A DNA stretch of 64,000 nucleotides, taken from contig JYFJ02001220.1 of assembly GCA_000934665.2 (NCBI GenBank), positions 1 through 64,000 on the forward strand, given 5' to 3'. Positions 2,525 through 61,909 of this stretch are shown here, in pieces; the first letter of the stretch is position 1; the number at the start of each line of letters is the position of its first letter. Origin of the DNA: Catajapyx aquilonaris (taxonomy: Eukaryota). Under the pieces are notes generated by a model, which did not search any database, was not told the DNA's origin, and saw only the letters and a program-made list of their open reading frames with translations. The translations under genes were made by a program, and so were the position numbers.

Positions 2525-3560
2525 ATGGGGCTGTTCTCACACCTCATTGTCCTATCAGGTCAGTCACTTGCGCTCATCTTTGATTCATCAACCGCCTCTG
2601 AAATATTAGCTCGAATCAGTCACTCAAACCGGATGCTTGCAAAACCTTTCTCGTTTGACAACAATGCGAGGGTTGTGTATTTTTAATGCGTGTGCGTATT
2701 TTTTTTTGCAGTGTGTTGCGTTGTTGGGTTGCACTTGACTGAGGTTGGTACCGAACCGCCTGCCAGCAAGTGCGACGAAATGGAGGAGGTTCGTCTGATT
2801 GATGAGTGGCAACAGTTGCAGTACTTGAAAATGAATTATTGCAGGTAATAACTTACACACACTAAACACTTTCGTTGCTTCAAATACTTGAAAAATATTG
2901 TAATGCCTATGATTGTCCTATAATATTATTGATTTCTCCTTAAGAAATTAATTGCAAAAGTAAATAACAGAGTCGGTTGATATTTAACAGGCTCGCAAGA
3001 TTTCACCATCATACTAATTAGGAGATATTAAGGCTAAATAAACACATTTCCGATGAACCGGTCAGTAAATAAATAGACCGACGCAAAATTCTATAACAAT
3101 ACCTAAAAGCTGAGTACCATTATTAGATATCCCATTATAGAGGCCTTGCACTCCGTTTTTATTCGTTATTTTTCGTATATTTATCAGTCAGTGTCCACTA
3201 CGGAAAATGACGTTTTCTTGTAATTGGTGGTAATGATGGTGTTTTTTTTTCTTCTTTAGCGCTCTTGAAAAGCAACGTTTGTGCTGGAAAGAGGTGGTGA
3301 GTGTAACACCTTTAGGGATCAAGCTCAGAAGACAAGCTCGTGACCAGATGGAAGCGATGACTTCGGATCTAAAGATGGTACCTGATTGTTGACCTTCAGT
3401 ATAATTATTAGTGTTGCGTTACCTGTCGATGAGCATGCGTAAATTTTTCTTACAGTTTAATTGCACAAATTCGGCGTCGTCAACTCAGATGATGTCAATC
3501 CCTGCCATGCTGATGTTATTTCTTCACTCGATTATGTCTGATATAATCTACGATTGCTAG
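2525..3560 (+). CDS. Array gene A: single-domain Cys-helical secretory protein with hydrophobic tail, 129 aa
   Basis: Exons 2525-2558, 2712-2844, 3260-3377, 3456-3560 (phases 1,2,0; GT-AG). MGLFSHLIVLSVCCVVG...SKCDEMEEVRLIDEWQQLQYLKMNYC-SALEKQRL-CWKEVV...DLKM-FNCTNSASSTQMMSIPAMLMLFLHSIMSDIIYDC*. Confidence 0.8.
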
Positions 3561-4638
3561 TTTGCAAATAACCACAGCGTTTGAGTCCCGCTGCGTCTAC
3601 TTTGTATGGAACAAAGGCTGTGTACACTACTCAAATAAAACACGCCGTAACTGCCTGAAGTTTAGTGTCATTACTTCGTGGCAGATGGCCATTGCAGCTC
3701 TCTTTTACGGGGCAAGCTTTGTGGGTTGCCTCATGACTCAGGATGAACCAAGAGGATTCTCTCATTTGCACGCAGGGAACATATATGATCATATTATGCG
3801 ACACACGTGTACGTGTTGCTAATGAACCCGTAGCTTTTAATTTTCATTGAATCGAATGTGGAAAGAGGAAATGGATATGTCATGGATGTCTAAGTCAAGA
3901 GACAATGCAGAGTATACCAGTTTCGAAATTGCGGCCGTTCAGAGAAGGTGAGTCAGTCATACTCTCATAGCTTATGAAAATGTAGTTAACAATATTAATG
4001 ATGACAGTCTGAGCCAACAATAGGTCAAACAGCTTGACCGAACAAGGAAAAAAAATGAATATATGCGACGGCGGGGTTACGTAATTTAAAGATGAAGTGG
4101 GTGGAGGTTATGCAACAGTGTTTTACTGCATTCAAAGAAAAAGACAAGGAAAAAGAAGTCATATCACCGAAAAATGTTAAGTAATTTATGTGCATCTAAC
4201 TTACAAGATACGAGCAAAGTGTTTACCAAGCTACAGTTGCACAAAGCGCAAACACGCGATGTGCATTGGGAGTGTCAAGGCAGTAGTATATCTTGTGTAA
4301 ACTGAGCTGAGTACTTGTTGTTTGCATGAAACATTCAAGATATAGATAACTTCAGTTATCATGCTTTAAGGAGTCAGTAGATTCTGAATTAATCTTTAGA
4401 AACCATGATCAATAAATGATCGCAAATAATTGGCAACTTAGGCAATCCCATTCGTAGAGTATTTCAAGGACATTCTTGAATGACAGGCCGCAAGCTTCCT
4501 CCACTTTCATTCTAGAAAAAAAGGGTTCCTCTGTTAGTCCAAGGTCATCAAATGACTTATGCTGGATGGCTCTACTAACCAATCTTCATTATTTTCTAGG
4601 AAGAGCTTGAGTCTTCTCCGGTGTTGCCGCCATTCATC

Positions 4639-5939
4639 ATGAAGACGCTCATGTTTTCTTCCATCTTCTCAATGCGTGAGCCTCTTATGTCTAAGCGTGT
4701 TTTTGACATTAATGGCTCGTACTTCAATTTACTCTGATGATGTATTTTACATGACCGTTTGTCATGTTCTCCCACATAAATGCCTTGGGTTGGTTTTTCG
4801 TCCTTCTCATAATGTTGTTAGTGCCCACTAATAACAAGCATCTATGGAAAGGCTGTGGGAGAATCCCACTATACCGACTGTAGAACGTATAGAAGCACAG
4901 AAATTGAAGGACGAAAAACATCCTTTGTCTCAAAATGCGAACAAATAACCGCAGCCTGTTTAATTTGGTAAAATGTTACGGTGAAATTTTATTATTTTGA
5001 AATTATGAGTTTGAAAAGAAATTTGAAACGAAATTATGGATTTTGAAAAGAAAATTAAGCTGGTAGAGAGTGATAAATTATTTACAACGGGAAGTAATTT
5101 TACGGAGTATTATTTTACATGTTTCACTGATTTTCTTTACTCTGCACCAGATTTATTTGCCAATTATAAATTTTACGCGCCTGTGGCCTGTACATTTCCT
5201 ATGCATTAATTTTCAGTGTGCGCATTTAAGTTGATTTTGGCGAGTACTACTTGCATTCAAGACTTGACCGAGCAATCGCAAAATGTGCCTGACGACAACC
5301 TTGAACAACATTGCCAGCAAGTGTCTCATTATTTTTTTAAATAACCATTATTGACATCGTCATTTTCAACCCTTTTTATTTCCTCCCAAAATGTTATCTC
5401 TGTTATCAGATTAACTCGGCAACTGGTTGATTGCTACGAACACACGCTGAAGAGTGCCAACCTCACCCCATTTGTGACTGAAGAGTATGATAAGCAGGCG
5501 GCCAGTTTGAGGAAATATCTAGAGGTGAATGATACAGCTTTATGGTTACATACAGTAATAGCAAAATAATTTGTTAGGTGCTTCGAGTGTTCATTTTTGA
5601 GATTTGTTTTACAAGACACGGATGAATAATTTTTTTCTGGCCGTGGATGTATTGTTGTATGTTACAGTTTTCAATACTTGAAAAAAAATTATAATCAGGA
5701 AATCCTGCTTATTCTGCCCTATTTGCATCTACACAACCTTGGGGGTGTTATTTTTGAAACCCGCAAAAATAATCAACCATCAGATGTAATTAACGACCAC
5801 CTTTTGACTGGCAAGTGACGAAAGTGTTTATTTTTTTCAGGAAAATAAATGCTCCGGTGGGAAGCGCACCACATCCTCGGCTTGGTTGCTTTTCACGTCC
5901 ATTATTGCAGCAGCAATAATGAATCAGCACCTGAATTAG
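4639..5939 (+). CDS. Array gene B: single-domain, putative GPI-anchored, 116 aa (GC-AG intron 2)
   Basis: Exons 4639-4675, 5217-5316, 5410-5524, 5841-5939. MKTLMFSSIFSMLCAFKLILASTTCIQDLTEQSQNVPDDNLEQHC-QLTRQLVD-CYEH...RKYLE-ENKCSGGKRTTSSAWLLFTSIIAAAIMNQHLN*. Confidence 0.8.
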
Positions 5940-10710: not shown

Positions 10711-12313
10711 ATGAAGGTCATCGTCTTGTGTGCTGTCTTTCTGGCCCGTGAGTACAATAATTCATTACATTTAACTAACTTATTAAACTACAAGTTAATA
10801 ATTCGTGGCAGGGGTAACCACTTCATTTTATTAGTTACTCAGTGGAATATTTGGAACTTTTTGTGTGTGCAGCAGCTGCTGACCGGTGAGGTGCGTGGAT
10901 AGCAGCCTGTGATATGTTATTACGACTATTAAAAAGATGATTGGATTGTTGACCACAAGAGTAGGGTTCACTCATTAACCTCGAATGATTTTTAAGTGGG
11001 TCATTCTCAGGGCTGTAGGGCCAGTTTATTTGAAGACGTGAAATTATGAGCAATCATAGCCACATTATTTTGATATTGAAGACAATCTGACTCGACTACT
11101 GGACATTACGTATCTACAGTATATTATGGGGTGTCGTGACGTTTTTATGAAACTTGAAGTGAGTATTTATAGAAGAAATGGATGGATAGTTTGTTTGCCA
11201 ACTAATAATAGCAGTGCCAATCAACAATAAATCGTATTGGAAGCGTATGAAACAGGAAACTTAAATCTCACCGGATGAGATGTGGCAGGAAAAACCCTCC
11301 AATTTAATTAAATAATGAAGAAACACCCGGCCATCATTTTATTTTCGCCTAGAAAAGGGACATATTTTAATGTCTTGAACGAGGAAGTATTAAATACAGC
11401 TCTGTTAAAAAATAATGGGGGCTATCATTTAGATGACGTTGCATCAGTCCTATCGTCAACAATGTAGGCCTGACTGACATTAAACTAGCAGAAATTAATA
11501 TTTCCTCAATTTGGATGCATTAAACCTGGTTTAACTCCATCATTGAACACTCCCATCACGAAACATTTTTCTTATGCTGTTTCCTGTTCAGGTTTTTGTT
11601 TCTAATACTACTGTACTATAAAATATTGCACATGATTTTGAAGACTGATAATATTTTCAATTTTTGCCAGTGTGCCATGCCAGCTCGGCCCAAATCCCTC
11701 GTTGCCTTTCGGACCTCCAGAACAAAATGGCTCAAACAAGTTCAAGCGCATCTGATGCGGAGCAGTGCCAGTAAGTTGTGCTAAAAGTATACTCCACGTC
11801 CACAAAGGGGGGGGGGGGAATGATCTCGGTGAGAACAGTTTGGATTCCATTAACTACGAGTAGAAAGTGACGCCAGAGAGTGCACAGTGTGCCTCCCATT
11901 TTTTTCACATGTGCCTTGTCCTACCCACAGGATCGCCCATGACATGGTGAATTGCCTGGAGAGCATAGTGAATGACAACAGCTTCCCAGATGGGGCCAAG
12001 AGCACCTACAGGAGTCAGCTTAACCAGATGAAAGCCAAAATAAGCGTAAGTCGGATTTTGCCAAATTTATTGTCCTGCAATGACTGGCGCTTGCAATAAT
12101 ACTTTTGTAAATTTTCGCAATTTTTTTTACTGTTTGCATCGAAAGTACTGAGAGTGTTGTTACTTCACCATCACTTGCTTATTATTACCCACGACTAAAA
12201 TATATTTGTTTTTCGTGCAGGAAAAGTGCGCCGCTTGCATGGGACCAACCTTCGTGGTGGGAATGCTCCTCCTGCCCCTGCTGGCCCTCATCAAGAACCA
12301 CTTCAACTTCTAA
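10711..12313 (+). CDS. Array gene C: single-domain, putative GPI-anchored, 114 aa
   Basis: Exons 10711-10747, 11671-11770, 11931-12045, 12221-12313. MKVIVLCAVFLALCHASSAQIPRCLSDLQNKMAQTSSSASDAEQC-QIAHDMVN-CLES...KAKIS-EKCAACMGPTFVVGMLLLPLLALIKNHFNF*. Confidence 0.9.
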
Positions 12314-14568: not shown

Positions 14569-16216
14569 ATGAAGGTCGTCGTCTTGTGCTCTGTATTCCT
14601 GGCTGGTGAGTTGTTCAGTTTCTCGAAATATTATACAGTGATTCGCGTACAGGGTTTCTCACAAAAATACATGTACGTTATATTGATGCACTATTCATTT
14701 AACCCTAAACTGATTTTTGTGTCACCGTTTTGCGTACATGACTTTACCACTGGACAGTGCTTGTCACGAGGTACATTAAACAATGTCTAACTAATTTCAC
14801 CAAAATGTAACCTTCAGCGTCCTTCTTATCCGATTTTCATGTTAATTTGGTAGGCTATTTGATGACTTTAAAGATTGTAACTCAATATTACGCGGAATAT
14901 ACATTGATATTTCGCAGCCAGGTATTGTTAGAATTGTCAATCGACAAGAAATGGCCGTGAAGGCTTCAACATAAAATAGCCTCGAGGGTTTTAGCAAAAA
15001 GACTGCCTTGAAATCTCTATCTCTCTGAAAAAAAGAAATGTGAGAACATCGCGGCCTCGCTATATGGAGAAGAATAGTGCTGGCAACATTTAGCAGAAGT
15101 ATGAAAATGCAACTCATAATTATTTATAGTATAGTGAAATGATAAATATTATCATTGACGAGGGAGTATACAATATGCAACGCTATGAAAAAATGGCATT
15201 CAAAACGACTATAATATTAATAACGACTATGTGGCATCAATCAAAATTGAAGGAAAATCTCTGACACAAGTAATATTGTAATATTATAATAATTGTGTTC
15301 TCGATATTATTCTCAATCAGAAAATGTTCCCTTATTATTGTATCCATTCAACCTGGGTCTAACTCCATTTTTACTAAATGCACTGGTGCTAGTACATTAT
15401 TATGCAGTTTTTTTGTATAGGTTTTAGCACAGAGAATAACCGAAAGGATATAGTGTGAACACTGACCGATTAAATTCCAGTGTGCCACGTCAGCTGGGCC
15501 CAAATGCCCCAGTGTGTTGCTGAAATCCAGAGCAAGATGATGAAAGAGGGTAATGTCGGAGCTTCTCTGGAAGAGCGGTGCAAGTAAGTTGTGTGATGCA
15601 TATCCACACGAAAATTCAATAATTGCATAAGTGAAAACAGATTTAAGTCGAATAACAATAACGGGGACAAACGCTACACACAAAATATAGGAATTCATAT
15701 CGCATTATGCATAATAATTTGCATGCCCCTCGTCTACTTCCGTCAGGTTCGGCAATGAATTACTGGCATGCCTGGAGAACGTGATAAGTGAGGGTTATTT
15801 TCCAGAGGGGATCATGAAGTACTACACGGATCAGGTGGACCAGATGGCATCCCAAATCAGAGTAAGTTATAGTCAATTGGGGGAAACTATGCATTTTTTA
15901 ATTTAATTTTTTTTACATCAGAGGGTAAATAAGAGTCAGCGTGCTATTCCTAGTGCAGTAAATGGTGAATTAGTTATTCAGCGTAAAATTAATGATGAAA
16001 TTCCGCGACATTACAGTGTATTAAACACATATAGTCACAGAATGAAAGATATGCGCTTAAATTATAGCTGGAAAATAACAACTAGACTCAATTTGACCCA
16101 TTCGCAAATTTTGACCCATGAATCCATGATTATTAATTATGATGATATCATCTCCTATGTTCTCTTCTGCACAGGCAAAATGCAGTTCCCAGGAAGAAGA
16201 GTCTCCTGAGAATTAG
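14569..16216 (+). CDS. Array gene D: single-domain paralog of C, truncated before the anchor (secreted), 98 aa
   Basis: Exons 14569-14605 (alternative ATG at 14563), 15481-15583, 15747-15861, 16175-16216. MKVVVLCSVFLAVCHVSWAQMPQCVAEIQSKMMKEGNVGASLEERC-KFGNELLA-CLEN...SQIR-AKCSSQEEESPEN*. Confidence 0.8.
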
Positions 16217-18007: not shown

Positions 18008-18632
18008 CGTGCACGTCTTTACAAGCTTTTGCAGCCAACAATGTAAATCAAACAATCAAGGATACACACACTCTCCCACACTTTCATTTAGACCACCCCC
18101 CAAATGGCATGCCCTCCAACACATTTTTCTATCGCCTTTCTACCAGCACATTGGACTCCGATCCAAGTTAAAATACAGCATCTTTTTGTACGACTCACAA
18201 CATACATTTCCGACCTGTTTCCGTAGCATAATTGTGTATCCAGGCAGTGGAATAAAAATTTCACACGGACAGTGTAATGCAATAAAGTAATTGTAAAAAT
18301 ACACTGTTTCTTTTCCTGTGCCAGCAGAACTTATCATGTGGACATGTTCATATGAAAGTGAATCAGTGAAATAATTATTCTATGGGGCCCATGATTTCAA
18401 CCTAGAAACTTTAAATGCATCAGTGAAAATGCACCTTGGAGATTCACCTTACTGGCCTTTTATTAAAATAATCCTTTTCACTAACCGTCTCCAAACACAT
18501 TAATTTTGCATTGAAGCCGCGAAAATATTGCAGAGCATAAAATCGAAGAATAACTGAGCGACTGTACGGCATTCTGCTCCATTCGACTACTTCCACAGCG
18601 GTGACAAGATGCTGACACCGGATTTCGGATCT

Positions 18633-46854: not shown

Positions 46855-49800
46855 ATGAAGCTGGTGGCAGCTCTTTTCCTGTTCTCGTCCGCTCTTCTGC
46901 TCATTGCAGGTGAGGTTTAGGTTGGCGTGACGGACCGTGACACTGGTGTTAACCACAAGTGGTTGCTTCCAATGGATTAATGTTGAAGAGAAAACAACTC
47001 AGTAAGCACATTCATACGTCGGGATTAATCTCGCTAAAAATTATTTCTGTCAGTGCATTACCCTGCGTATCAGGTAGTACATGTACAACACAATGCAGAG
47101 ATATCCAAAAGTAGGTCACGACTGGGAGTTTTTCCCACACCCATCTCCCTTTGCACGCCATGTCACGCAATATCACACAGGTTACCTTCTCAAAAAGAGT
47201 ACATTACCTTGATGTGCACCATTCCTAGGTAATTTTAATACAAAAACCAGTGAGGTCGAATGGCCGAATTTTTTAGTCGGTGTCCCTGTAAATAAATAAA
47301 TAAATAAATAAGCTTAGGCGTGGTATATTAGTCACGCGTTCTTTTATTTCCCGGTAGAGCCTGACACTAAATATTCATTCTCATCATGTATAAATAGCTG
47401 CGTTTTTCCCCGGGACATTTGCTTATTTATATTAATCTATTCATTCATTTATAATCATGTATATGTCCAATGCAGGAGCCGCTAACAATGTTGCAATATG
47501 AAGCCAATGAAGGCCTCCTATAGCTGAAGTTTGCCACTACTGCACCTACCGGTATCATGATTGAGGACAAGCAGGGCAAGCATGGAAGCATAAGGTGCTG
47601 ATGGAAAAATCTGTTAATAAAATTGAATTTTTTTTCCATTGTTCTGACTGGATAGAAACTGTTCTTGCATCGCTCAATCCTTTATTATACAAATCAGCGA
47701 GTGAGAGGCAACATTTCCTGGCGTCATCCATTCATGTATTTGCTGATCTGTGTCATGCAACAGGCATTTTTGTCCCATCATGACTGGTATTGCGTGCAGG
47801 TTTATTGTGGCATAGCATGTGTGCCACTACCCGACTCCAGCAATAGCAACAAGCGTTCTTTTGTAATATGATGATGTGTTGATAATATTGTATTGATGGA
47901 GTTGCAGTTTCGTGTACATTATTTTCTCTGTGTTTGTCTGCAGGTGTGGTGGTGGGTCAAGGGGTTGGTCAGGGAGACTACAGAGGAGGCCAGGTGGACT
48001 ACAGAGGTGTCAACAACCAGCAGGGTGACCCCAGGGGTCCCCAATGTGACCTGAACCGTGTGCAGCAGATGCAGCAGGAGGCTGCATCCATGTCATTCAG
48101 CTGGTCCAACCTGGACGACTGGTGCAAGTAAGGCATCTCTTTATTTGCTCAGGGTGTGGTTCCAAGTCCACACGATTAAAAACAGCACCCAATTTGTGCC
48201 CGCAGCAAACTCAGGGATTTGATATCGGCCATGCAGAACTACGCCTCAGATTGCCAAGGGCAGCAGCAGGGGCAGGCCCCGGGGCAACCAGGCAGACCAC
48301 AGCAACAAGTGGATGTCCTGTCGGGCATCAGAAATGTGTCCAGAAGCATGTGCGAAGATCCATCATTTCGACAGCGTACGTAATCCAATCACGTTGCAAT
48401 GATGCCGTATTGTCACTTATCCTTTTCTTACAACTCAGAGTACCGCAACTTTGCCGATTGCTTGGAGCGTGCTGGTGGTCGCGTCCAGGATTGCAGCAGA
48501 GGCCTCCAGTCCCTTCCGCCCCCGCAACCGCAGCAGCCTCCTTACTACAGCAATGCAAACACGCAGATCTGCTGTCAGTACCTGCAGGCCACCAAGTGCA
48601 TGCGCAACGGGATCATGCAGATGTGCGGATCACAGGCCGGTGACTTCTTCCAGGAGATGGCCAAGAGGAGCCAGAGTCACATACTCAAGGTATTATATAA
48701 CCGAGCACCAAATAGCCAGAGATTGGCGCAATTAATTTATAAACAGATTAATCAAATTCAATAACAGCGAATTAATTCTAAGCCGAATTGAAAGGTTCTT
48801 CCAGTAATAATTCAGCCAGTAAAATTCGTGACATTCATCTTAATTCAGTACACTTTCCATTCATTTCCATTCAATTCCACTCGCGTCCATTCTTGCATGA
48901 ATGTGGCTTCCTCCTATTCAATTATTTTAAATTCATCAAAGTGGAGCAAGTCGCACATTCATTCACTTCCGGATGGTCCCATCACAGCATTCAGTGTTAT
49001 GAATAATCACAAATGGTAATACTCGTAGATTATCCTAATACATCTTAATATCTCGTAGATTATTATAAATCTATCGGAGCTAGTAGAAAATTCCAAGTAG
49101 GCCTAATCCGAAGCTAAGCAAAATGTACATGACCAGCAAGTGCTCTCACGAGTGTTCCTGAATTCAATAGAAACAACAATCATTGCCACAATAATAATTT
49201 GTCCAGATTGTTGCTTCTCCATGCTCTGGTCGTGTCGTGAATAACTTGAGCCACTTGTTTCCGTTGTAGGAATGCGAACTTGGGGAGTGCACCACCCTGT
49301 GCTTTTTGGGCGGCCACCGCTCTGTGTATATTATATGTGTGTTGCTAAACACATGCGTGGACATGAGGAGACGACGCGTGACCTCGCACACATAATAACA
49401 CTCTGATGAGAGTCGGTTTTCTTAGAATGCGAAGGAAACGAAGGACTCTCCGCGTCGGAGGAAGATAATATGAGCGGAGTCACGAAGGCAAGGTGCCTAA
49501 TACTGCGCATTGCTCTGTGCATTGTGACGTAACCGTCGGAGGAAAATTGGCAGTAATCGAGTCACCAGCATCATAGACATGGAAATTGCACTGACCTAGT
49601 GCAATTAGATTATGCAAGTAAATGTCACTTGGCAGGCTAATGAAAGGGTGGGCGAAATTCGGCCTGAAAATATAGTCTTGTCTGATAGGCTGGCACGGGA
49701 CCATTTCTGCCATATTTTGTCTTTCCTCCTTCAGCCAGCCCTGAAACAATCTGGGGTCGACTAATGCCAGTTCTAAAATTGACCCCCGCTGTTGCCACCC

Positions 49801-50130
49801 TGATCTAAATTCAGCAAAATGTCGCAATTCCTTCCTTAGGCCCAATGCCAGGACCTGAACCAGCTTCGTTGTGCAAACGAGGACACAGACATGAACCGGC
49901 ACGACGGCCACGGATACCAGCCAGGCGGCGGCGGATACGGAGACAGGAACAACTACGACAACCGTCCATACAACGACCGGAACAACAACAACAACTACGA
50001 CAACCGCAACAGCTACGACAACCGGCCGCCTCCTCCTGGAGGCAAACGCAACGCAGGTTTCCGACCAGACGTGCCAGGTCTGGTCCTCATCCTGGCAGCC
50101 ACCTTGCCCTTAGCCTACCTGCTGTACTGA
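46855..50130 (+). CDS. Array gene R: two-domain CC-type protein with Gln-rich loops and YDNR-repeat stalk, putative GPI-anchored, 316 aa
   Basis: Exons 46855-46909, 47944-48127, 48206-48375, 48439-48689, 49840-50130. MKLVAALFLFSSALLLIAG...QCDLNRVQQMQQ...DDWCNKLRD...SDC...MCEDPSFRQQYRNFADCLERAGGRVQDC...QICCQYLQATKCMRNGIMQMCGSQAGDFF...AQCQDLNQLRC...GGKRNAGFRPDVPGLVLILAATLPLAYLLY*. AATAAA at 50160. Confidence 0.88.
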
Positions 50131-50343: not shown

Positions 50344-53300
50344 ATGGGCACATCTGGCACGCTTTGGCTGCTGGCAGGTAAACACACCAGATCGATTCAC
50401 ATATTTTTGTATTACTAGTATCAAGAATTGCTAGATTGCCTTCAAGGTCGAGATTGGGTACCAGGAAGTTGCGGGTGTTTCGGAATGTTTAGAGAGTGAG
50501 CTGATTGTCTCGTAATTACGTACCTGGAAGTGTGCATGATCTGAACGGGATTTGGGTACAATAAGTTACTGCATGTTACATCACAGCCGCGAATTTAGAG
50601 TAGGTTACACGTGTTAATGGATGGTGGGATGGCTCTCTCAGGCGTATATGCTCAGTGCAGGATATCATTCAAAATGAATTAATTACCCTGGGCAATACAG
50701 AAAAAAAGGCTTTGAGTTGATTCTAAAATAATTACTCGTATTTGAGTAGAGATTGACATTCGCTTAAATTTTGTAGTTGAAAGTCGCCATCCGCCGCATT
50801 AAGCTATAACAATATTTAAATAAATTTTCTTCTTTCGTGTAAATTATAACCAGTTGATTATACATTGTAGCATTGGGATAATCACAGCATCATAGTTCCG
50901 AATATCGAAGTCAGTATGTATAGCAACATGTGGTGATTTTATTGCATTCATTTCTTCTGGCCTATTAAACTTTTAGCGCTTGATCCTAGTATCGCCATAA
51001 GCACGTGTCCCAAATTTTGTGCAAATCTGAAATTGTAGGGATATTTTTTTTTTGCAAACTATCGTGGAATTACCCTTCAGGCAGTATTCAAACGCAAACT
51101 GGCCAATATTCTACACATGTTGTTTTTTTTCGAGTGAAGGGGGCGTAAAATCTATTTTTGGTTGAGATAATGGTACATTAATCATCTGAGCCTGTGAGGA
51201 AATGTGCAGTTATGCAATAACGAGACAAGAATAAAATGCACATCTGTGAAGAAACAGGTTCAAAACACGTGCATCGCCATCAGCTAAAAGCACGTGCCAA
51301 AGTGATCGATTACAAAAAATATTATTCATCCTTAACAAACAGAATTATTCTCAGTTGGAGGTACTTTTTCTATAGTTTATTGCGGTTTTCCTGTCGGTAC
51401 ATTGCTACAAGTACTACTGTAGTAACTAGGATTTTATCTTCTGCTCTCTGGATTATAATAGACCATTATATGTTATGCATAATAATATTATGCAATGATC
51501 AATTCGCTATTAAATATTTTTCAATCGGATTTTTGGTATGATTTGGATAAATATTTTTGCATAATTATTGCTAACGTAGACTATAATATACCACTCTTTT
51601 CAATTAGTGCTAAAAATTCACTGGCCAAATGTAAATTTTTCATTAGCACACCCAAAGTGCTCACCTAAATTTTGACATACTTATATAGGTGTAATACACA
51701 GTATTTATGGTAAAACAACTGTGAGATATTAAATCCGGAGAAATATTTCAAATCTACGAAATATTACTATTCAATGAGTTATGAACAATTAACTGATGGA
51801 ATTTTCCAATATGCAGCAATAGGTAATGAAGACATTAAACATCCTGTATAATTACACGCCGCTGTTAAATAACTAACTGCAGTAATGACATGCAAAGGCT
51901 CTTTTAAAAAACCCACCCACCAGCTGCAAAGTATGTGCTGATGACAATACCCCATAATTATTATCAAAGTATGTACGCGCCCATATTTGCATGCGAATTG
52001 CAATATTTAAAGCGAGCCAATCCCATATAGTCTTCTGACAAGTTAAATTACTGTAGAAAAATATGTGCATAATAATTATGATTAATTGTTGTGCAGCAGC
52101 ATTGTTGTGCACGGTGGGGCCATCTGTGGCCCAGTGTGACCAGGATGCTGTTGACAGGCTGGAGACCCAGCTGACCCAGCTGACCCAGGACGGCAACCCT
52201 GCCGCCAACGCTCTCTTCATCGACGCAGCAGAAGGACCTTGCCGGTACCAGTTTTCTCTTAAGTTTTACACACACAAAAAATGGACAAAAGGACACTAAA
52301 AACCCTGCCCATTACTGACCTTATCGTGTGACCTCGTCGCCCGGCAGGTATGTGGAGAGCGTGTTGAACAGCACCGATCGGTTCGTGAAGGAGTGTGGTC
52401 AGGCCCCTGAGGTGGTTCCTCTCAGCCAAAAGGCCCAGGTGCTTAGGCAACTATGGCTAAGCGTCTGCGTCGAAGGAGACGGACGAGCCGGTATGTCTGC
52501 GCATAGTTCTGCGCATAAAGTTCACGCGCATAGTTCTGCGCATAAAGTTCACGCGCATTGATTCTGCGCATGAGTGTGCATGGCGCATCAATTCTGCGCA
52601 TGAGTGTGCATGGCGCATCAATTCTGCGCATGAGTGTGCATGGCGCATCAATTCTGCGCATGAGTGTGCATGGCGCATCAATTCTGCGCATTACCACTGC
52701 GCATATGTTCTGCGCATGGTCACAAACTATGCACATGCGCCGTTTTTTGACAACGTGAAATCTCAACTCTAATTGATGTCATTTTTTCTCTCTTCAGCTT
52801 TGCTGGAGCATGGAGTCTGCTTCGAGGAGAATCGAGATGCGATTTGGAAGTGCATTTCCCAGTTCAATCGCAAAATGGATCGGCTGATTGGCTCTGAGCT
52901 TCCTCGACAGGAGCAGACGCAAGGACTTTGTTGGCAAGTTTGACACTCTTTGTTAAGTCCTCTTCTTTACATTTTCTCCCGTTTGGTCACACCAAAGCCT
53001 ACTCATAGCTAGAGAGAATCGTAGGCTCGTAGCTAGAGAGAGCTGGAACGGGCCTAACAGTTTCTTTAATGAATGGGTAGGACTCGAGACATGTTTATGT
53101 GTGTCTTGTTTGGGGGGGATTTTCACGCCTCTTTTTTGCGCGTTGAGAGTTTGGAATTTGCATTTTCAAAACCGTGCCTTCCCGTGACGGGCATCCGTGA
53201 AAATGGATCCTCACGCGACGCATACGATTCATATAGTCCTTGAAACAACCGTCTTCAGGCATACTTCCAAATAAATATTCAGATTCAGGAACGTGCCTGT

Positions 53301-54561
53301 CCATTTATATTTTTGCACACATTTTTCTTGAATATTTTTAAAAGAAATGTGGATCCACTTAGTAAAACCATTACCTGCACGAGGGATTCCGAGATATGAG
53401 TTACGACATAGCCTTGAAAAATACAGGCGTGAGAAAAATCTCACTATTCGCAAGAATTATGGGAAAAAGAGTGTGCTTTATTTTTTTAAAAAAATTTCTT
53501 TGGCGCAGTGGCTACAGGGTGTACCGGATGTGCTTGAACTATGAGACCAGCAGCGCCTGCGGAAAAGATGCTGCGGATTTTCTGGACGAACTGGTAGAGA
53601 GGACGTCGGGAGACATTTTCCGCGTAAGTAGGTCTAGAAAAATATTTATTTTAAAAGGTATGGGGATTATGTGACGTGTAAGAAAATATATATCTCTCAG
53701 AGAATAAGTTGGCGTGACCGTGAGAATTTAAATGAAAAATACCACACACTTCCTTTGGTAATTTATCAAGGGTTGAGTCACAGAATTCCTGGAAAGTTAT
53801 GTGACTATGAGGCTATGCATAGATATTAATGGGTGGGGCTATGAATGTAAAGAATTATTAAATTATCTTCTGCATATGATTAGCTATTGGCTATTGGCTG
53901 AATGAAGAGAGTCATGCAGCATGTTGTACAACCAGGCCCAATCCGGCCCTTGTTTTATGCAATATTTCTGTGGCGGAAAATAGATAACATCGCGCGTGAC
54001 TAGAGCACGTGACAAAAAGATTTTAATGACCACTCTAATGCATTAAAGATAAAAGGGTGATTGAAGATTGTATCAAACCCAAGTGTCTTATCACATTTCG
54101 CTCGTGTCATAGAAAATATTCGTATATTGACAGGCGGAAAGTTAGGGTCTGCTCAAAAATGGACAAACTTCCACTTGGGCATTTTATTTTAACGTAAATA
54201 TTTGTTGCGGATTTGTTGCTGTCGCGTACATTAAACTCACTCTAACGTCAATTTTATCAATATTTTTATGCCAGTTCAAGATGCACTGGGTTCGACATTT
54301 CTCATCACTGAACAGAAGTCATCGTGACAGCAACTTGCATGGCGTGTTCCTGTACTTGTTTTTAAAATACCGTACAGTTAGAGTGATTGGAAAGTAGCTG
54401 GTTTTTAATTGGTATGTTTCCACCAGGTTTTCTGCAACGATCACGACGGAGTATGTCCTGGAGAAGAAGCTACAGCATTTGAAAACTCCAGCACACGTCC
54501 AGAGCATTCCATACTTGTTGCATTCCTAATATTCCTCACGACACGTTTGTTCTGCTCGTGA
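50344..54561 (+). CDS. Array gene S: two-domain CC-type protein, putative GPI-anchored, about 236 aa (GC-AG intron 4)
   Basis: Exons 50344-50377, 52097(or 52100; NAGNAG)-52244, 52348-52490, 52798-52933, 53509-53623, 54427-54561. MGTSGTLWLLAAALLCTVGPSVAQCDQD...GPCRYVES...KECG...SVC...GVCFEENRDAIWKC...GLCCGYRVYRMCLNYETSSACGKDAADF...VFCNDHDGVC...NSSTRPEHSILVAFLIFLTTRLFCS*. Exon 1 is the least certain assignment. Confidence 0.8.
52499..52691. repeat. Intronic minisatellite: 2 x 27 bp followed by 4 x 30 bp GCGCAT-rich units
   Basis: gcgcatagttctgcgcataaagttcac x2 (52499-52552) and attctgcgcatgagtgtgcatggcgcatca x4 (52561-52680), plus a partial unit. Confidence 0.95.
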
Positions 54562-54879: not shown

Positions 54880-55998
54880 ATGGACCGTTTGTTGCTGGTA
54901 TTGTTGCTGCTGATGGCGCCAGGCATCGGATCTCTTCCGGTAAAGGACCCTCAATCGGTGATGCTCAACATGGCCCAGGGATGCAAGAGCCTGGAGGAAG
55001 TGATCGCAGAGCAGCCCGGATCGTCCCTGGTGCACCAGAGCAAAGGGGTCAAAGCTGCCCTGGCCCTTCTGTGGGGGAACCTGTGCAACAGCTCATCCGA
55101 CGCCATGGAGCTCCTGAAGGTGCCCACGTGCCTGCAGGTCAACGAGAAGAAGATAGCCGAATGCTTCAAGGCCACCACTGGACACGCTGTGAAGGAAGCC
55201 AGGGCTCTCAAGCAGACCCAGGAATGGAGCAAAGTCGTCTGTGGGTCAGTATATAATTTTCCGACTCTATTTTTGGGACAGGGTGTGGCTGTATGTGGAC
55301 TGTGTCCCTCTTCCAAAATTGGCTCGTGTTTTTGTTTGTGCAGGGTTACCAAGCAGCTGAGGAGCTGCACTCGAGCCTTTTGTGGTCAGCCCTCCGATTT
55401 CCTGGTCGACTTGGTCAAGCTTACTTCCACACTGGCACTGCAGGTACTAATTCCTCAGGATATTTCACGTGTAGTTAAGAATTACTCGCTCTAGCAACCA
55501 AGTTTGTAGATCAGAAACCATCAGACTTCACTTTTCAATAAGATATTCACAACTTGATTGTACTTGGATTTGGACAGTGCAGTATTCTGTGTGTATTCAT
55601 GTCATCGTGAGCAAACAAAACGTAATGATAAAAGCGTGTGCATACGTTTATTGCGTTTTGTTTGCTCGCTTCTCACTCGCAACGGGGTTAATGACCACAG
55701 CATGATTTAATATTTGCACAGTTCTTGAATCCTGTGTAAGACCTGGGCTGAATCGTAGAAGTCATACTTACCCGCAGGTTTCTAATAATAATATTGTTGA
55801 GGACAGCAGCTGTCAGCCAGCAAGGAGAAACCTGCGGTTGAGGTCATACCTTCAACGGTCGGCCTAATCTACTAAAGGGTCGTTGGGACCTCCACTAATT
55901 ATTATTATTGTTGGGCAAATACTGACAGTGTTGTTGGCCATTTTCAGGGCTCCGGAATGGCAGCAAAATACGGCAGCGAATGTTTGGACCACGCGTGA
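54880..55998 (+). CDS. Array gene T: intron-poor, N-terminally shortened two-domain-type member without anchor (secreted), 171 aa
   Basis: Exons 54880-55244, 55344-55443, 55948-55998. MDRLLLVLLLLMAPGIGSLP...QGC...GNLC...PTCLQVNEKKIAEC...VVCGVTKQLRSCTRAFCGQPSDFLVDLVK...-GSGMAAKYGSECLDHA*. AATAAA follows near 56044. The last exon is the least certain. Confidence 0.75.
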
Positions 55999-56401: not shown

Positions 56402-58777
56402 TCAAGCTCCATTGTTGATTTGTGATGGTAAGGTGTCCACATCCCGGCAGTCGGTCTCCACGTGGCGGCAAATCGGCTGCAAAAAAAGGGGGTCATTTAC
56501 ACTTACTTTCAGTAAAGAGTGTGAGGGGGTTCACTTTTTACCACGAGCCCCCAATAGCGTGCTTCCGTCAACAATGCGAGGGTGAAAATTGTTTTGAGAC
56601 GTGGCAGAAATTAGAGTTGGTTTTTTTTTAAAACAAAAAAAAGTTAACGCTCCGAGGAATAGCCTTTCCCAAGAGTGTGATTTATTTTTTTGGGGAGGGC
56701 TGTTTTAAATGCGGACACGCAACATTCTAACGGGTTTTGTTCCAAGGCTTTGCATACTACTAGTCCAGCGTCGGATGAAAACCATGACCTTGTTCGGATC
56801 TGGTCGTCAAGAATCTGAAGGTGAATTGCAACCCTCCCTCCCTCCCTACCCTACTCCACACCCCTGAGGGTGAAATCTCAGCACTTTCATTTAAAAATTC
56901 CGATTTAAAGTTCTGTCGCACGAAACAACCAGTTCGGCTTGTTATTAGGTCGTTTTATCCGAAGAAAAAATCAGGTGCTTTTAGAGGATATAAAAGTTCA
57001 TAAAATATGCATAATTTTGTAATGAGAAATACTATAAAAATATTTTTGAGCAATTTTCTATTACATTTTCAAAACTGGCTCGATCACTTCCTGAATGCCT
57101 TTTTTGCTCCCGTTCATTAGTGTATAGAATATTATTCATGCGCTATTGATTCAATCACACGAGGGAAAAATATTACTTCACTTAGTTGAAATATTTTTAA
57201 AATCCAAAGACCGTTAAGTGCTACAATTGTATACAGAATTGGAAACCACTCAAAAATAATTTAACTGTCTGACCTGTGGTACTTAATTTTTCATATAATT
57301 TAATAAAGTTTGCAAAAGTGAATGAATTAATAAAATATATCGTCTACAAATCCACCAAGAAATTGTTTTAACGTTCAAAGTAACTTATAAGTTGCCGAAA
57401 TAATATTGGTGACTGATGTTGGAGCAACGGAATTTTTGTGTATTAAAACTACTGCTTTCCGATTGCATGGATGATTGGGAAATATTATTATCAGCTGACC
57501 AACTTACGTCATAGATAACGCTTCCTATTTTGGCTGCCAGAAGTGTCACCCTGGTCCTTCCCTGCGCGTCACAGCTCAACGATCCGGAATCACGAATGCA
57601 AAGCAGGTACTTTTCAATAGAGCTGTAAAAAAACGGGGTCGCATTATTAATTTTTTGTATCACCGTGCATAAAAATACAGATCCCGAAATGAGAAGCCAT
57701 ATCGTCCTCGAAGGGACAAGTAGGCCTGTCCTCTCTCCATTCGTTCCAATAAACTAGTTTGCTGGTTTATTATGTCTCATGGTCTACCGGGATCGTACAA
57801 AAAAAATTGATATGAACTTACCAGCAGAGTCTGTTGAAGTAAACGTTGTTTTGAGCAAGCGATGATGCTGAGATGAGTCTCGAGTGAGCTGCCACCGAAT
57901 CCCGGAAATTGTTCACACAGCCCTGGACAGCCTGAGCATTTCTGATCAAACACGGGTCTATCCCAAGCCCTTGAACTAGAAAAACCAGTGTCACCACCAC
58001 ATTTTTTAAAAAAATTTCCTCATTAAAAATTGACTCACGCTCCAGCATCAGGTCTGACTGTTCACACTCGGCCTTGAGCAGCTCCTGCAGCCCTTGCAAG
58101 ATGCGCTGGTCAGCCTGGGCCTTGCTGCAGCTCAGCAGGACTTGAGATCGGTCCAGCAGACTCTGCATCCTCCTGCATAGAGCTGGAAGCCTGCCCTGGG
58201 ACACCAAGGGCTCCAACTGCAGGCTTGTCAGACCCAATCCTTCCCATTCCAGTTTCCAGGACTCCAAGGCAGTCATGTTGCATTCAGGGCTGGGAACACT
58301 GGGCAAGGTCAAAGGTCACGTTAGGACACATCAACAGGTAGGATACACTTTTAACCTCCTGAGACCCCTGGTACAGTATACTGTACCTTTCTTTTTTCCA
58401 GCACCTTCTGACTAACTCAAACGCTTAAAAAACAAAGGTACAGTATACTGTACCAGGGGTCTCAGGAGGTTAATAGTAGATAGTGTACACTCTAATCAAT
58501 AAAAATATTATATTCCGTTGTTTATTCAGCTAATTTTGGGCTGACTGCTAGCACGAGCAGGTACATGAACCGCGCAATTAGTTTCTCAATCCGGAACAAA
58601 CCATGTTAGTCCTGCTACCATACACACCCGCCTAATTATCCACGCATTCTGCTGATACCGCCTGAGGCTAACATTTTTTGATCTGCGAAGTAATGGGGCT
58701 CACCTTGGGATATTGGCTGCTGTTCCGCATTGGAACAGGAGAACCACGAAGGACAGGGCCTGCAGGACTCGGTACAT
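56402..58777 (-). CDS. Array gene U: two-domain CC-type member, ends without hydrophobic tail, 225 aa
   Basis: Exons 58777-58704, 58298-58039, 57975-57822, 57622-57508, 56476-56402. MYRVLQALSFVVLLFQCGTAANIPSVPSPECNMT...ALCRRMQ...LSC...AEC...DPCLIRNAQAVQGC...RLCCSIEKYLLCIRDSGSLSCDAQ...PICRHVETDCRDVDTLPSQINNGA*. Confidence 0.8.
58351..58473. mobile_element. TTAA-flanked MITE (piggyBac-like), 115 bp with perfect 36-bp TIRs, in intron 1 of gene U
   Basis: TTAA|cctcctgagacccctggtacagtatactgtaccttt ... aaaggtacagtatactgtaccaggggtctcaggagg|TTAA. A TTAA target duplication and CC termini are piggyBac hallmarks. Confidence 0.8.
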
Positions 58778-60380
58778 TGCTTCTCGTTCCTTCTTCGACT
58801 GGGGTGATGACCACCTTCTGGGTTTGTGACCGACTGACTGAAGAGATGCCTGATGCACTGAGAGGACAGCCCCTTTCTCTTCTGCTCCTCCTTCCCTACT
58901 GCTTCTTCTCGCTTTCTACACCACCGCAGAAGTGATTATTATCTCTTTTTTTCCTGCAGTCCGCTAATTACGCTTCTCCTCCCCACCTTGACCTCGGATT
59001 CTGCGATTATTCGATATCCTACCGGGGTTTTTTTTTGCCGGTATGTGCCTGCCGGCATTGCTATCGTGCTCTGGTAAAAAAGGAGGGCTACAATAAACAT
59101 GGGAATTACCAGATCTGAACGTCATAGGCAACCGAGTCGTAATAACCGCAAAATCCTTCCTTATATTTTCCGTGAATATCCTGCACACACTACGTACACT
59201 GTACGATTGTTGCTTGATAAGAAAGGGAAAAGAGGGGAAGGAACAGGAAATTGCAGGAGGGGGTAATAAAGAAATTATTACAAGCTCGTGTTCTGTTTTT
59301 AGTCATCATTTGTCTGGACAATTGTTTGAGGTCGTGTACAATATTATTTTCATGCAGGAGAATTTTTAAAAAATTGAAGGTTTCAATACTGTAATTACAT
59401 GTGCTATAAGGAAATGTGCTGGGAATAAACTCTGTCTATATGCCATCAGGAGGAACGTCAAATGTGTTAATTTGATACGATTTACAATTAGCACTAACGG
59501 CCGTAAATTATTTTTTTAAAGACAACATACGCCATTACAATTTTTGACGGGTATAAGTACATTTGGATAAAAACGAAATTGTTGCGAAATGGTGGTGCTT
59601 CTAAATTTATGAATTCATGAACTGTCGTATTAAAAAGAAGCACTTTGTTGTAAGCAACATGCACGGTTGCTGAAGTAAACAATCTGCAATTTGTTCACCT
59701 ATATGCCATTACTTTGTAATTGAGACTTGGGTAGTTGTAAGACAGCGAAATACATGGTATTTGCCCTAAAGCTTGATTAAAATGATCACTATAATCTCAA
59801 ATCAGGTCTTGTGCCACAAAATTACAGGTCGTGAATTTCACGTGATTGCACGTTCCCATATAAGAAAATAAAGGTCATTTTAAAGCCCTGGTTACGTGAC
59901 ATTTATTGGTCTTAATTCGAGCAACCTTTGGGAAAAATCGGCGGTAGTGAAACGTACAATTTGAAATTCGCAAGTGCTTAAACGTGACAAGTGGGTGCAA
60001 TAAGTAGCATGTACTGCGAGACGCCTGTTACACCAAGGACGGCGCATGTACGACTGTTAAAACGCTTGGTTGGCGTCCAATTGATTCGACGAGTCCGTTC
60101 AGCGTCCGTAACAATCAAGAAAAATGATCAAAGGAAAAAAAATGTCGAAAGGTCACGGCTGGTGGCAGTCACAATAATTACTATTGAACGGACGCGATGA
60201 TGACTTCACAGTCGTTGTGCTTTATGCGGTGTCAGCAAACAAAGACGGAAGCGGTTTTTTAATCCCACTTCCGTCACGGTTTTCTGTCGTGAACTTTGCC
60301 TTTCTCCGTCCGTCTCTTTCTCTCTCTAGACACAACATTTTTCTTCCATCCCCCTTTTTTTGTCCTCCAGCCGCATTCAC

Positions 60381-61909
60381 ATGGCCTGCTCATTGTTGCT
60401 CCTGGCCATTGTTGAGGCTCTGCTGGTGGTGTTTGTGTCCGGGCAAGGACCTGATGTGGACTACTGCGAGGACGACTCCTTGGCTCAGGAGTTGGACGAT
60501 CTGCTTCTGGGACAAACCCTGGAGGCTATGGAGGCTGCTGGAGAGGGCCGCCCCGGGGCCGCCCTGCTACCGGACGAAGCCCGTGTCGCCAATCTGTGCA
60601 AGTATGTTTATATGCAAAGAGAATATTGTCTGGATGTGTATAGCTTCAGCTTTTTAAAAATAAACTTATCGAATATCACTAGCAAAAACTTCCACCAACA
60701 AATAAAGAGCAGTAATGCAGAACGATCAGTGAAACAATCCAATGATTTCAAGATGTAAAAATTACGAAGCTAAAAATTACCTTAGCACCATCAATCACTG
60801 CAATATTCATCATTTGGCGACAAAGCCTCGTGACATAAACCTTTTTTGTCCACCTGTCAGAGACATGACGGACGTGACAGACCGAGCCAAGAATCAGAGT
60901 GCGACATGCTTGGACGAGTATGGCCTTCCGGTACACAACACGTCTCAAGCTCAAGATGTGGCCGAAATTATCCAGATTCTTACGGATAACAAGTCGCATA
61001 AGAAGATTTGCCTCGACGGAGACTACAGATTCGGTCAGTGACCCGATTAGGGTAATGAGCAAGTGTCGCATTGTTGGGTTTTTGGAGAAGGTCGTTTTTT
61101 GGAATTAGATGTGAGATTATGCCAGTCCCAGGAGAAAGGCGGGGGCGGAAAATCAGGTCGGTTCAACATGTAGGGGTTGAGGCCTCCTGAGTGTATAGTA
61201 AGGCACACCAGAATGCACTTTTTTCCGCCCTGATAGCTTTTGGGCTGAGAGTTTGAAAGTTGAGTTCATCATGCAGTGGGCTGTGGAGAAAAAAAAAAAA
61301 AGAATCGTGATCGGGTCTTTCTTTTACTTTTGACCTACTTGAAACAATTAAGGCTATTATTATTCTGGTTATGTATCCAGATCTGTCCCACGCAAGTGTG
61401 TGCATCAAGACGGTTCCGGATGCTGGGAAATGCTGGACCATCTATGCTGATCGTAAGAACATGATGGACGATTACGCACAGGACCATCCGAGGCACAACA
61501 TGTTGCATGCTACTTGCTGGTCAGACCACTCGATTTGTGATGTTCTAACGTTGAAGTAAATGTAATGTTCATTTACAGTGCTTATGTGTACTTGTACGAG
61601 TGTGTGTACGAGTCCATGAAGGACGTCTGTACCGAGAGAGAAGCCGAAGCCGGCAAACAATTTGTGATGCTGACCGAAGGAGGGGCTCTGGTATATTACT
61701 CTTTACCTTATTAATATTCATACCGCATTACCTAATGATCTCTATTATAATAAGTTTGTAACTATTTCCAGTGGCAATGCGATGGTCTGGAGCACCACTG
61801 CCCTAAGTATGGATCAGACTGGAGCATGTCTGGAAGCGGCGGAATGATGAGCCAGCTGCTTCCGTGGACCTTCTTCTTCTGGACTCTGCTTGTTATGTTG
61901 GGGCAATAA
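60381..61909 (+). CDS. Array gene V: two-domain CC-type protein, putative GPI-anchored, 260 aa
   Basis: Exons 60381-60601, 60861-61033, 61381-61519, 61579-61690, 61772-61909. MACSLLLLAIVEALLVVFVSGQGPDVDYCEDD...ANLCKDMTD...ATC...KIC...SVCIKTVPDAGKC...ATCCAYVYLYECVYESMKDVCTE...WQCDGLEHHC...SGSGGMMSQLLPWTFFFWTLLVMLGQ*. Confidence 0.9.

Follow-up and report, generated by a model that had tools for sequence, protein, structure and literature searches.

Does the first 64 kb of contig JYFJ02001220.1 of Catajapyx aquilonaris (positions 1 to 64,000, hereafter the window) really hold a family of small intron-split genes, what sort of protein would these genes encode, and do they descend from a family that is already catalogued? 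A sequence-only reading had proposed 22 spliced genes for cysteine-scaffolded, putatively lipid-anchored proteins. Our best explanation, with a probability of about 0.7, is an old tandem array of secreted, disulfide-braced helical domains, in which 19 genes carry a GPI-type tail and genes A-Q are reduced from an eight-cysteine form.

Gene models and extent of the array

Gene models were built with a pattern-and-splice-site script, independently of the earlier reading, and were then refined by reading the DNA. Twenty-two neighbouring, intron-split paralogous genes were rebuilt within 59 kb (2525..61909), 19 on the forward and 3 on the reverse strand, with the first ATG at 2525 and the final stop codon ending at 61909, the same limits as first proposed. 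The models are as follows.

Gene A, 2525..3560, forward: 4 exons (2525-2558, 2712-2844, 3260-3377, 3456-3560); 129 aa, hydrophobic tail; phases 1-2-0; spacing C1-x22-C2-x8-C3-x33-C4
Gene B, 4639..5939, forward: 4 exons (4639-4675, 5217-5316, 5410-5524, 5841-5939); 116 aa; intron 2 GC-AG; exon 1 picked by reading the DNA, the script favouring a different ATG
Gene C, 10711..12313, forward: 4 exons (10711-10747, 11671-11770, 11931-12045, 12221-12313); 114 aa
Gene D, 14569..15861, forward: 3 exons found (14569-14605, 15481-15583, 15747-15861)
Gene E, 17039..18007, forward: 4 exons (17039-17078, 17353-17446, 17613-17715, 17828-18007); 138 aa; charged insert ahead of the tail in the last exon
Gene F, 18633..19316, reverse: 4 exons (19316-19280, 19204-19078, 19016-18902, 18815-18633); 153 aa; C2-x9-C3; acidic stalk ahead of the tail
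Gene G, 19484..20225, reverse: 4 exons (20225-20186, 20120-19994, 19930-19816, 19735-19484); 177 aa; acidic stalk; head to head with gene H across a gap of 101 bp
Gene H, 20327..21442, forward: 4 exons (20327-20363, 20832-20961, 21034-21148, 21266-21442); 152 aa; acidic stalk
Gene I, 21761..24104, forward: 10 exons; 363 aa; four tandem 4-Cys domains, then one tail exon (24006-24104); least certain at the exon 1/2 junction (21800/21887), where there is no RNA cover
Gene J, 25063..26517, forward: 4 exons (25063-25096, 25901-26015, 26218-26317, 26416-26517); 116 aa
Gene K, 27843..28421, forward: 4 exons (27843-27879, 27957-28089, 28156-28258, 28326-28421); 122 aa
Gene L, 29106..29891, forward: 4 exons (29106-29142, 29406-29526, 29608-29719, 29796-29891); 121 aa
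Gene M, 31616..32506, forward: 4 exons (31616-31655, 31733-31844, 32186-32276, 32414-32506); 111 aa
Gene N, 33427..34709, forward: 4 exons (33427-33469, 34076-34196, 34266-34386, 34611-34709); 127 aa
Gene O, 37522..38414, forward: 4 exons (37522-37558, 37949-38072, 38150-38264, 38328-38414); 120 aa
Gene P, 39199..40193, forward: 4 exons (39199-39241, 39739-39859, 39918-40032, 40104-40193); 122 aa
Gene Q, 42374..44020, forward: 4 exons (42374-42410, 43402-43519, 43580-43694, 43934-44020); 118 aa
Gene R, 46855..50130, forward: 4 exons (46855-46909, 47944-48127, 48551-48689, 49840-50130); 222 aa, 8 Cys; N-terminal part G/Q/Y-rich, N/Y/D/R-rich stalk ahead of the tail
Gene S, 52063..54561, forward: 5 exons (52063-52244, 52348-52490, 52798-52933, 53509-53623, 54427-54561); 236 aa; 4-Cys and 8-Cys domains plus tail; start codon least certain
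Gene T, 54880..55443, forward: 2 exons resolved (54880-55244, 55344-55443)
Gene U, 56402..58777, reverse: 5 exons (58777-58704, 58298-58039, 57975-57822, 57622-57508, 56476-56402); 225 aa; 4-Cys and 8-Cys domains, domain 1 within one exon; no hydrophobic tail
Gene V, 60381..61909, forward: 5 exons (60381-60601, 60861-61033, 61381-61519, 61579-61690, 61772-61909); 260 aa; 4-Cys and 8-Cys domains plus tail

The 72 introns comprise 70 of GT-AG type and 2 of GC-AG type (B intron 2 and S intron 3, both GCAAGT), and every acceptor is CAG or TAG. Intron phases run 1-2-0 in 16 four-exon genes (A-C, E-H, J-R), so that the phase pattern first ascribed to A-Q is borne out and extends to R; gene I runs 1-2-0-2-0-2-0-2-0, and gene D shows 1-2 and lacks a terminal exon. 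No recognisable tail exon for D was found in the 1.2 kb upstream of gene E, and the gene may be truncated or may have a last exon of unrecognised form. The last exon of gene T was not identified in the window. The resolved intron of T is 99 nt long, in frame and stop-free, and intron 2 of gene S contains 27/30-bp tandem repeats.

As a control for chance, the identical model finder was run on both real strands and on 10 first-order Markov simulations. It returned 18 models on the forward strand, 16 of them scoring at least 38, and 4 on the reverse strand, none reaching 38, while the simulations gave 0-4 models each with a top score of 36.5; the simulated sequences thus yield nothing comparable to the real models.

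Splicing in transcripts

GT..AG joints in the contigs of one public run (X5) were compared with a DNA run (X1). The X5 contigs contain 13 such joints, all missing from X1, and 12 of these coincide with predicted introns, matching 12 of the 15 introns predicted in genes J-N (J 3/3, K 3/3, N 3/3, L 2/3, M 1/3). For gene L, introns 2 and 3 and the donor of intron 1 were matched, and the sole contig uses an intron-1 acceptor at 29459 instead of 29406, 53 nt downstream of the model, which puts it out of frame. For gene M, intron 3 was matched, and the M contig listed is unspliced over 31815-32276, running through intron 2. These L and M transcripts look aberrant. The gene N contig extends to 35645. 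The tandem family is real and partly transcribed.

Divergence, age and selection

The 16 single-domain proteins share pairwise identities of 9-52%, and the closest pairs (F/G 52%, O/P 50%, K/L 44%, C/D 41%) fall within the local subfamilies already recognised from the sequence. At the DNA level, similarity persists in no more than a handful of exons of C/D, F/G, O/P, C/K and C/E. Because dS between copies is at least 0.45 and mostly saturated, the copies are, by this measure, old, with no recent burst.

Selection was estimated as Nei-Gojobori pairwise dN/dS, with exons 2-3 compared against the tail exon. In the least saturated pairs the ratio for exons 2-3 is 0.73 (C/D), 0.59 (F/G) and 0.46 (O/P), never clearly above 1, which fits relaxed constraint as well as selection, and the description of the repertoire as diversifying is not upheld. 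In the tail exon the ratio is 0.11-0.41. These low values coincide with synonymous differences of 0.41-0.75, so the conservation of the tail is due to selection rather than to recent gene conversion. On the preferred explanation, the ectodomain has been drifting almost freely except at its cysteines and helical pattern, with signal and tail maintained by purifying selection.

Much of the array could also be decaying, with many copies being weakly expressed or non-functional relics; the high divergence would then stem from lost constraint and no functional repertoire would lie behind it. The ectodomain ratios of 0.46-0.73, the missing tail exon of D, the 3' end of T, which was not located, and the L and M contigs, which would fail to encode full protein, are all compatible with decay. 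For D, L and M the earlier statement that no copy is clearly broken needs qualification. Decay of this extent nevertheless seems quite improbable: 20 of 22 models keep an uninterrupted reading frame from ATG to stop over their 4-10 exons although dS is mostly saturated, splice sites are all retained, as are the four cysteines (save C4 in D), J, K and N are spliced correctly, and tblastn found no orphan exon fragments outside the 22 models.

Cysteine scaffold and predicted fold

A Cys-x8/9-Cys pair interrupted by a phase-2 intron is present in 22 of 22 models, and the C2-x8/9-C3 core is accordingly common to all genes, as first described. In A-Q the spacing is C1-x15..25-C2-x8/9-C3-x24..34-C4, with two exceptions, namely the first domain of gene I (x9 between C1 and C2) and gene D, which lacks C4. 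Gene I joins four such 4-Cys domains, each interrupted by a phase-2 intron and connected through phase-0 introns. Genes R-V carry an 8-Cys version of the domain, in which a C-x8-C pair likewise spans the phase-2 intron. The two-domain genes S, U and V combine a 4-Cys and an 8-Cys domain into 12 ectodomain cysteines over 178-197 residues, compared with 8 in R, at least 7 in T and 4 in A-Q. The earlier reading had mentioned neither the multi-domain make-up of I, S, U and V nor the 8-Cys version in R-V.

In the 8-Cys pattern of R-V, the four A-Q cysteines correspond to positions b, c, e and g, and both groups have a phase-2 intron after c and a phase-0 intron before g. An hhalign comparison between the A-Q profile and that of the R-V 8-Cys domain was not significant (P 0.026, probability 1.9%), so the case for a common origin depends on gene architecture and adjacency. 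On the preferred explanation, the fuller form, with a 4-Cys and an 8-Cys domain, would be that of S, U and V (T and R showing it in part), and A-Q would be a reduced form in which four of the eight cysteines survive, placed identically with respect to the shared introns.

A helical ectodomain, as proposed earlier, is suggested by hydrophobicity periodicity, which peaks at 90-110 degrees in three segments. The first domain of U, a complete related domain, was modelled by AlphaFold2 as a four-helix bundle (best model pLDDT 80.8, with four further models at only 59-63). The domains are probably mostly alpha-helical, and those of A-Q would be helical too.

Signal segment, tail and predicted anchor

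Signal and anchor calls were made with simple hydrophobicity (Kyte-Doolittle) and small-residue rules. A hydrophobic N-terminus is found in all 22 proteins (best 8-residue mean 2.4-4.1) and a hydrophobic C-terminal stretch in 19 (best 12-residue mean at least 1.9; D, T and U are the exceptions), in agreement with the signal peptides and the nineteen tails reported previously. Candidate small-residue sites lie 20-32 residues from the end in all 19 tails, and each of these genes has one or more within 22-29. This is the GPI-precursor-type layout that had been recognised, and it fits a predicted GPI anchor. Each gene would encode a signal peptide that is cleaved off and, behind it, one to four small, putatively disulfide-braced, mostly alpha-helical domains; in 19 genes the C-terminus (small residues, short spacer, hydrophobic end) would most likely be cut off and replaced by a GPI lipid anchor, so that the helical part is displayed on the outside of the cell membrane.

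The tail is conserved unusually well for a GPI signal, and the basic residue with 4-7 residues after it that closes the tail in many copies could suit a short membrane anchor. If the C-terminal segment were such a retained anchor, or another functional peptide, this would explain why the tail is the best conserved part. Strong purifying selection on the tail exon (dN/dS 0.11 for K/L, 0.15 for O/P), the almost invariant Gly-Pro and Pro positions, and the tails of C, E and J-P, in which the hydrophobic stretch is followed by a basic residue and 3-7 more residues, agree with this alternative. We nevertheless regard it as unlikely, given that the hydrophobic stretch spans just ~13-17 residues with a proline inside, that every tail has its small residues in the 22-29 interval, and that the tails of F, G, H, R, S and V have only hydrophobicity and small residues in common with those of C-Q. 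Cleavage and lipid anchoring thus remain our preferred reading of the tail.

Searches for relatives

Homology queries were single exons or read-throughs, not full-length spliced proteins. With these exon-level queries, word-index, exhaustive HMMER, Pfam, PDB and ESM Atlas searches revealed no relative apart from one sub-threshold DUF19 match, and no named family above threshold, in line with the earlier suggestion that the family may be undescribed; because of the form of the queries, this novelty is provisional. In the PDB search, profiles of exon-3 pieces were compared with all PDB sequences; profile A1 (5 rows) gave no match, and profile A2 (20 rows) gave five with E no higher than 10; the best was a designed repeat protein, and neither RGM nor GFR-alpha was among them. 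A Pfam scan of 25 exon-level or read-through pieces (E up to 10) gave no match to neuritin (PF15056) and one to DUF19 (PF01579), by exon 3 of gene R (20.0 bits, E 6.5e-4, profile positions 112-148 of 157).

The array could instead be a lineage expansion and divergent branch of an invertebrate family of small secreted proteins that is already catalogued, with DUF19 or a neuritin-like family as the likeliest candidates and A-Q as reduced derivatives. The R match would agree with this, and DUF19 has twelve conserved cysteines in one domain, the number counted in the ectodomains of S, U and V. The a-b-c-e-f-g spacing of the 8-Cys domain in S, T, U and V appears close to that of neuritin. In C. elegans, DUF19 is a large family whose members are small and secreted; one study describes 51 genes, 42 of them with a signal peptide, protein lengths of 140-220 aa, and 14 genes induced on infection (PMC3534327). 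Another source lists a 19-kDa DUF19 protein in oyster (PMC10058639). However, the R match lies under the Pfam cut-off of 23.2 bits, and the other 24 of 25 pieces, among them the corresponding exons of S, T, U and V as well as U domain 1 in full, had no DUF19 match; these exons and U domain 1 matched no Pfam family at E up to 10. The T read-through, which covers most of the 8-Cys domain, had no true relative among 1.84 billion representatives, and at 0.9 or above the ESM Atlas yielded no cluster with a name. We consider descent from such a family possible but doubtful.

A bolder form of the preferred explanation is no better than tentative: A-Q may be an undescribed minimal 4-Cys helical domain, stripped from an 8-Cys (DUF19-/neuritin-like) ancestor still present at the array end, and displayed singly or as a four-domain string (gene I) on a selectively maintained lipid-anchor module, forming a large, old, extremely divergent, lineage-specific repertoire for putative cell-surface binding.

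Comparison with known systems

Animal genomes commonly contain arrays of small secreted proteins that are specific to one lineage, and the finding is therefore solid and not startling. For gene annotation it is relevant that the exons encode only ~11-60 residues each and that exon-level queries found no annotated relative.

DUF19 proteins (T20D4.11-like domain; nematodes and some other invertebrates) are likewise small, secreted and cysteine-rich, and a gene R exon aligns to the C-terminal third of their profile; the match is sub-threshold, covers 37 of 157 profile positions and, among the pieces scanned, involves gene R alone. General GPI anchoring of DUF19 proteins is, to our knowledge, not reported. 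Neuritin (CPG15, vertebrate NRN1) is likewise small and has a signal peptide, a helical ectodomain braced by disulfides and a GPI tail, features that are predicted for the array proteins. Its cysteines number six, with a central C-x8-C pair, whereas A-Q have just four and the array consists of 22 clustered, highly divergent copies with multi-domain members.

Ly6/uPAR clusters are similar in their clustering of small GPI-anchored proteins (the anchor being predicted here), their signal and disulfide scaffold, and their conserved signal and tail around a variable ectodomain. Ly6 domains have a beta-rich three-finger fold with 8-10 cysteines, and membership of that family was rejected on the basis of 4 (A-Q) or 8 (R-V) cysteines, different spacing, helical periodicity and no such Pfam match in the scan of exon-level pieces. 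By this comparison, the likeness to Ly6/uPAR clusters is one of organisation and not of descent. Should the array proteins prove to be lipid-anchored helical modules, they would form the helical equivalent of Ly6-type clusters, and the array would offer a clean natural series that starts with a two-domain form of 12 cysteines and ends with a minimal form of four, in which introns mark homology where sequence has been erased, for the study of how small disulfide scaffolds simplify and diversify.

Gene models of the array

Twenty-two intron-split genes (A to V; F, G and U on the reverse strand, the others forward) were recovered when the models were rebuilt independently, from an ATG at 2525 to a stop ending at 61909, and both the count and the limits are those of the sequence-only reading. 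The search used a core pattern, in which a cysteine codon is followed by two bases and a donor, and then an acceptor by one base, seven to eight codons and a second cysteine codon. This pattern identified a set of forward-strand loci and, after a start and a tail exon (the last exon, encoding the hydrophobic C-terminus) had been added to each core, gave 18 non-overlapping four-exon forward models. Direct reading of the DNA added F and G on the reverse strand, H, gene I with its many exons, and R to V. The model finder misses F and G because their phase-2 intron is displaced by one codon. The introns number 72, of which 70 are GT-AG and two GC-AG (GCAAGT), and every acceptor reads CAG or TAG. 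Ten windows simulated with a first-order Markov model and passed through the same finder gave 0–4 models each, with a top score of 36.5, and the real forward strand holds 16 models scoring at least 38, the real reverse strand none at that score. The array is confirmed by the independent models and by the simulation control. A tblastn search with all models found no orphan family exon in the window, whose G+C content is 36–48%; the window likewise gave no Rfam match, no dispersed repeats and no long open reading frame beyond those accounted for by the models or by the features listed here:

20186-20363, starts of G (reverse strand) and H (forward strand), head to head and 101 bp apart
49480-50109, reverse strand, open frame of 209 amino acids antisense to the low-complexity stalk of R
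52499-52691, intron 2 of gene S, adjoining tandem arrays of 27 bp (2.7 copies) and 30 bp (4.6 copies) with 95–98% matches

The close divergent starts of G and H suggest that the two share a bidirectional promoter; U and V also diverge, about 1.6 kb apart. The frame opposite R most likely reflects repeat composition rather than a gene.

Exon–intron architecture and cysteine pattern

Sixteen genes (A–C, E–H, J–R) have four exons with a phase-1 intron within the signal peptide, a phase-2 intron directly 3' of a cysteine codon (in F, G and H, with one more codon between) and a phase-0 intron just ahead of the cysteine with which the last exon begins. The A–Q proteins carry four cysteines spaced C1-x15..25-C2-x8/9-C3-x24..34-C4. 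Gene D consists of the first three exons only, and a tail-like exon is absent from all three frames of the 1.2 kb preceding gene E. In gene I the exon-2/exon-3 pair occurs four times, linked by phase-0 introns and followed by a single tail exon, and therefore encodes four domains in tandem.

The R–V genes carry an eight-cysteine domain (cysteines a–h). S, U and V encode two domains behind a signal peptide without an intron: domain 1 has four cysteines (spacing x34-43, x15-16, x20-33) and domain 2 eight, as a-x9/10-b-x25-30-c,d-x7-e-x8-f-x22/23-g-x6-h. T retains most of the eight-cysteine domain together with an N-terminal extension, and R sets a variant of that domain in the A–Q gene structure. 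By spacing, C1–C4 of A–Q match b, c, e and g, and the phase-2 intron after c and the phase-0 intron before g are common to both groups. We take cysteine spacing, intron positions and adjacency as evidence of common descent of the four-cysteine domain of A–Q and the eight-cysteine domain of R–V. Profile alignment of the two with hhalign was not significant (P 0.026), nor were the alignments with the four-cysteine domain 1 (P 0.41 and 0.38).

Transcript evidence

One sequencing run from the same organism (X5), from a set in which none is recorded as RNA, is taken as RNA-derived solely from its GT..AG joints and contains 12% of sampled words from 20200-30000. Its contigs were compared over 17000-36999, the range of E–N, and they give no cover of 17000-24336, so that they are uninformative for E–I. 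Thirteen GT..AG joints appear in these contigs but not in the DNA run (X1). Predicted introns account for 12 of them: J, K and N are each matched at all three introns, L at introns 2 and 3, and M at intron 3. The remaining joint pairs the intron-1 donor of L with acceptor 29459, where the model has 29406, so that the first cysteine is skipped and the frame shifted. The M contig listed is unspliced over 31815-32276 and starts 30 bases ahead of the predicted donor; we infer that this start reflects the 31-mer assembly graph, if spliced and unspliced forms coexist. The splice junctions of the rebuilt models stand in full for J, K and N and in part for L and M, intron 1 of L and introns 1 and 2 of M not appearing in the contigs as predicted.

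Further X5 contigs lie between N and O at 36218-36604 and 36676-36999, where there is no gene model, and may stem from a transcript that is not annotated or from an upstream exon. Intron 3 of O (38265-38327, 63 nt) and the T intron (55245-55343, 99 nt) preserve the reading frame and contain no stop, so their retention would add 21 or 33 residues without truncation.

Signal, tail and predicted fold

All 22 proteins begin with a hydrophobic stretch, with lysine or arginine within the first six residues in 19, and 19 of the 22 end in one; those without are D, U and T, whose last exon was not found. Candidate small-residue triplets lie 20–32 residues from the end in all 19 tails, at least one per gene at 22–29. 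The stalk ahead of the tail is long and acidic in F, G and H and rich in Asn, Tyr, Asp and Arg in R. In each of the three segments tested, alignment-averaged hydrophobicity of the A–Q domain is most strongly periodic at 90–110 degrees, as would be expected for helices. Domain 1 of U, the only complete family domain contained in one exon, was predicted without an alignment as four helices (pLDDT 80.8 in the best model, 59–63 in the other four). With this model, Foldseek against the PDB returned generic helical bundles only (best E 1.0), as did the wide VIA-align search, whose best Z of 8.7 is under the level that the program treats as meaningful for helical models. AlphaFold2 on the T read-through gave an unusable model (pLDDT 43). 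The best explanation of these features is a family of secreted helical proteins, probably anchored by GPI.

Divergence and selection

Pairwise identity among the 16 single-domain proteins ranges from 9 to 52%. DNA similarity survives in exon 1 of C/D, exons 2-3 of F/G, exons 2 and 4 and part of intron 1 of O/P, and short tail-exon stretches of C with K and C with E, and in no other pairs. Nei-Gojobori estimates are saturated in most pairs. For exons 2-3, which encode the ectodomain, the least saturated pairs give dN/dS of 0.73 (C/D, dS 0.67), 0.59 (F/G, dS 0.45) and 0.46 (O/P, dS 0.99). In the tail exon the ratio is 0.11 (K/L), 0.15 (O/P) and 0.33 (F/G), and synonymous differences there are no lower than elsewhere. 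By these values the array is old, purifying selection rather than recent conversion has kept the tail, and the ectodomain evolves under weak constraint. The earlier description of the array as diversifying is not demonstrated by the range of 0.46–0.73 in exons 2-3; whole-region estimates of this kind neither show nor exclude positive selection.

One stretch stands out among C and K, which are otherwise saturated at silent sites: the acceptor and first 30 bases of the tail exon (12218-12250 and 28323-28355) are identical at 32 of 33 positions, in proteins 32% identical overall. A local conversion tract or a nucleotide-level constraint could account for this identity. Separately, X1 has second contigs at about one-third depth, differing by numerous substitutions and small indels, at 18839-18892, 25535-25590, 26356-26433, 30479-30575 and 31232-31421, a pattern that fits high heterozygosity along the array.

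Relatives and comparison with known systems

Relatives were sought with single exons or with open reading frames that read through in-frame introns. Word-index protein searches gave no match for the O exon3-intron-exon4 frame, the K tail-exon frame (against longer proteins) or the U read-through. With the T read-through as query, an exhaustive search by HMMER matched only a 1505-residue Ser/Thr/Gln-rich repeat protein (P0001), judged spurious. PDB sequence profile searches yielded nothing usable, and the best ESM Atlas scores (0.84–0.85) led to no named family. Metagenome contigs were scanned with a four-row tail-exon alignment; two loci were set aside as chance matches because they had only the first 10–16 residues in common and no hydrophobic tail. 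The literature searched on DUF19 and on neuritin in invertebrates, a weak test, described no such array.

The cysteine spacing of the eight-cysteine domain may resemble that of neuritin. Among 25 pieces searched against Pfam, the one notable match was R exon 3 to DUF19, at 20.0 bits, below the cut-off of 23.2. In C. elegans, DUF19 forms a large family of secreted proteins of small size (PMC3534327), and an oyster protein also bears the name (PMC10058639).
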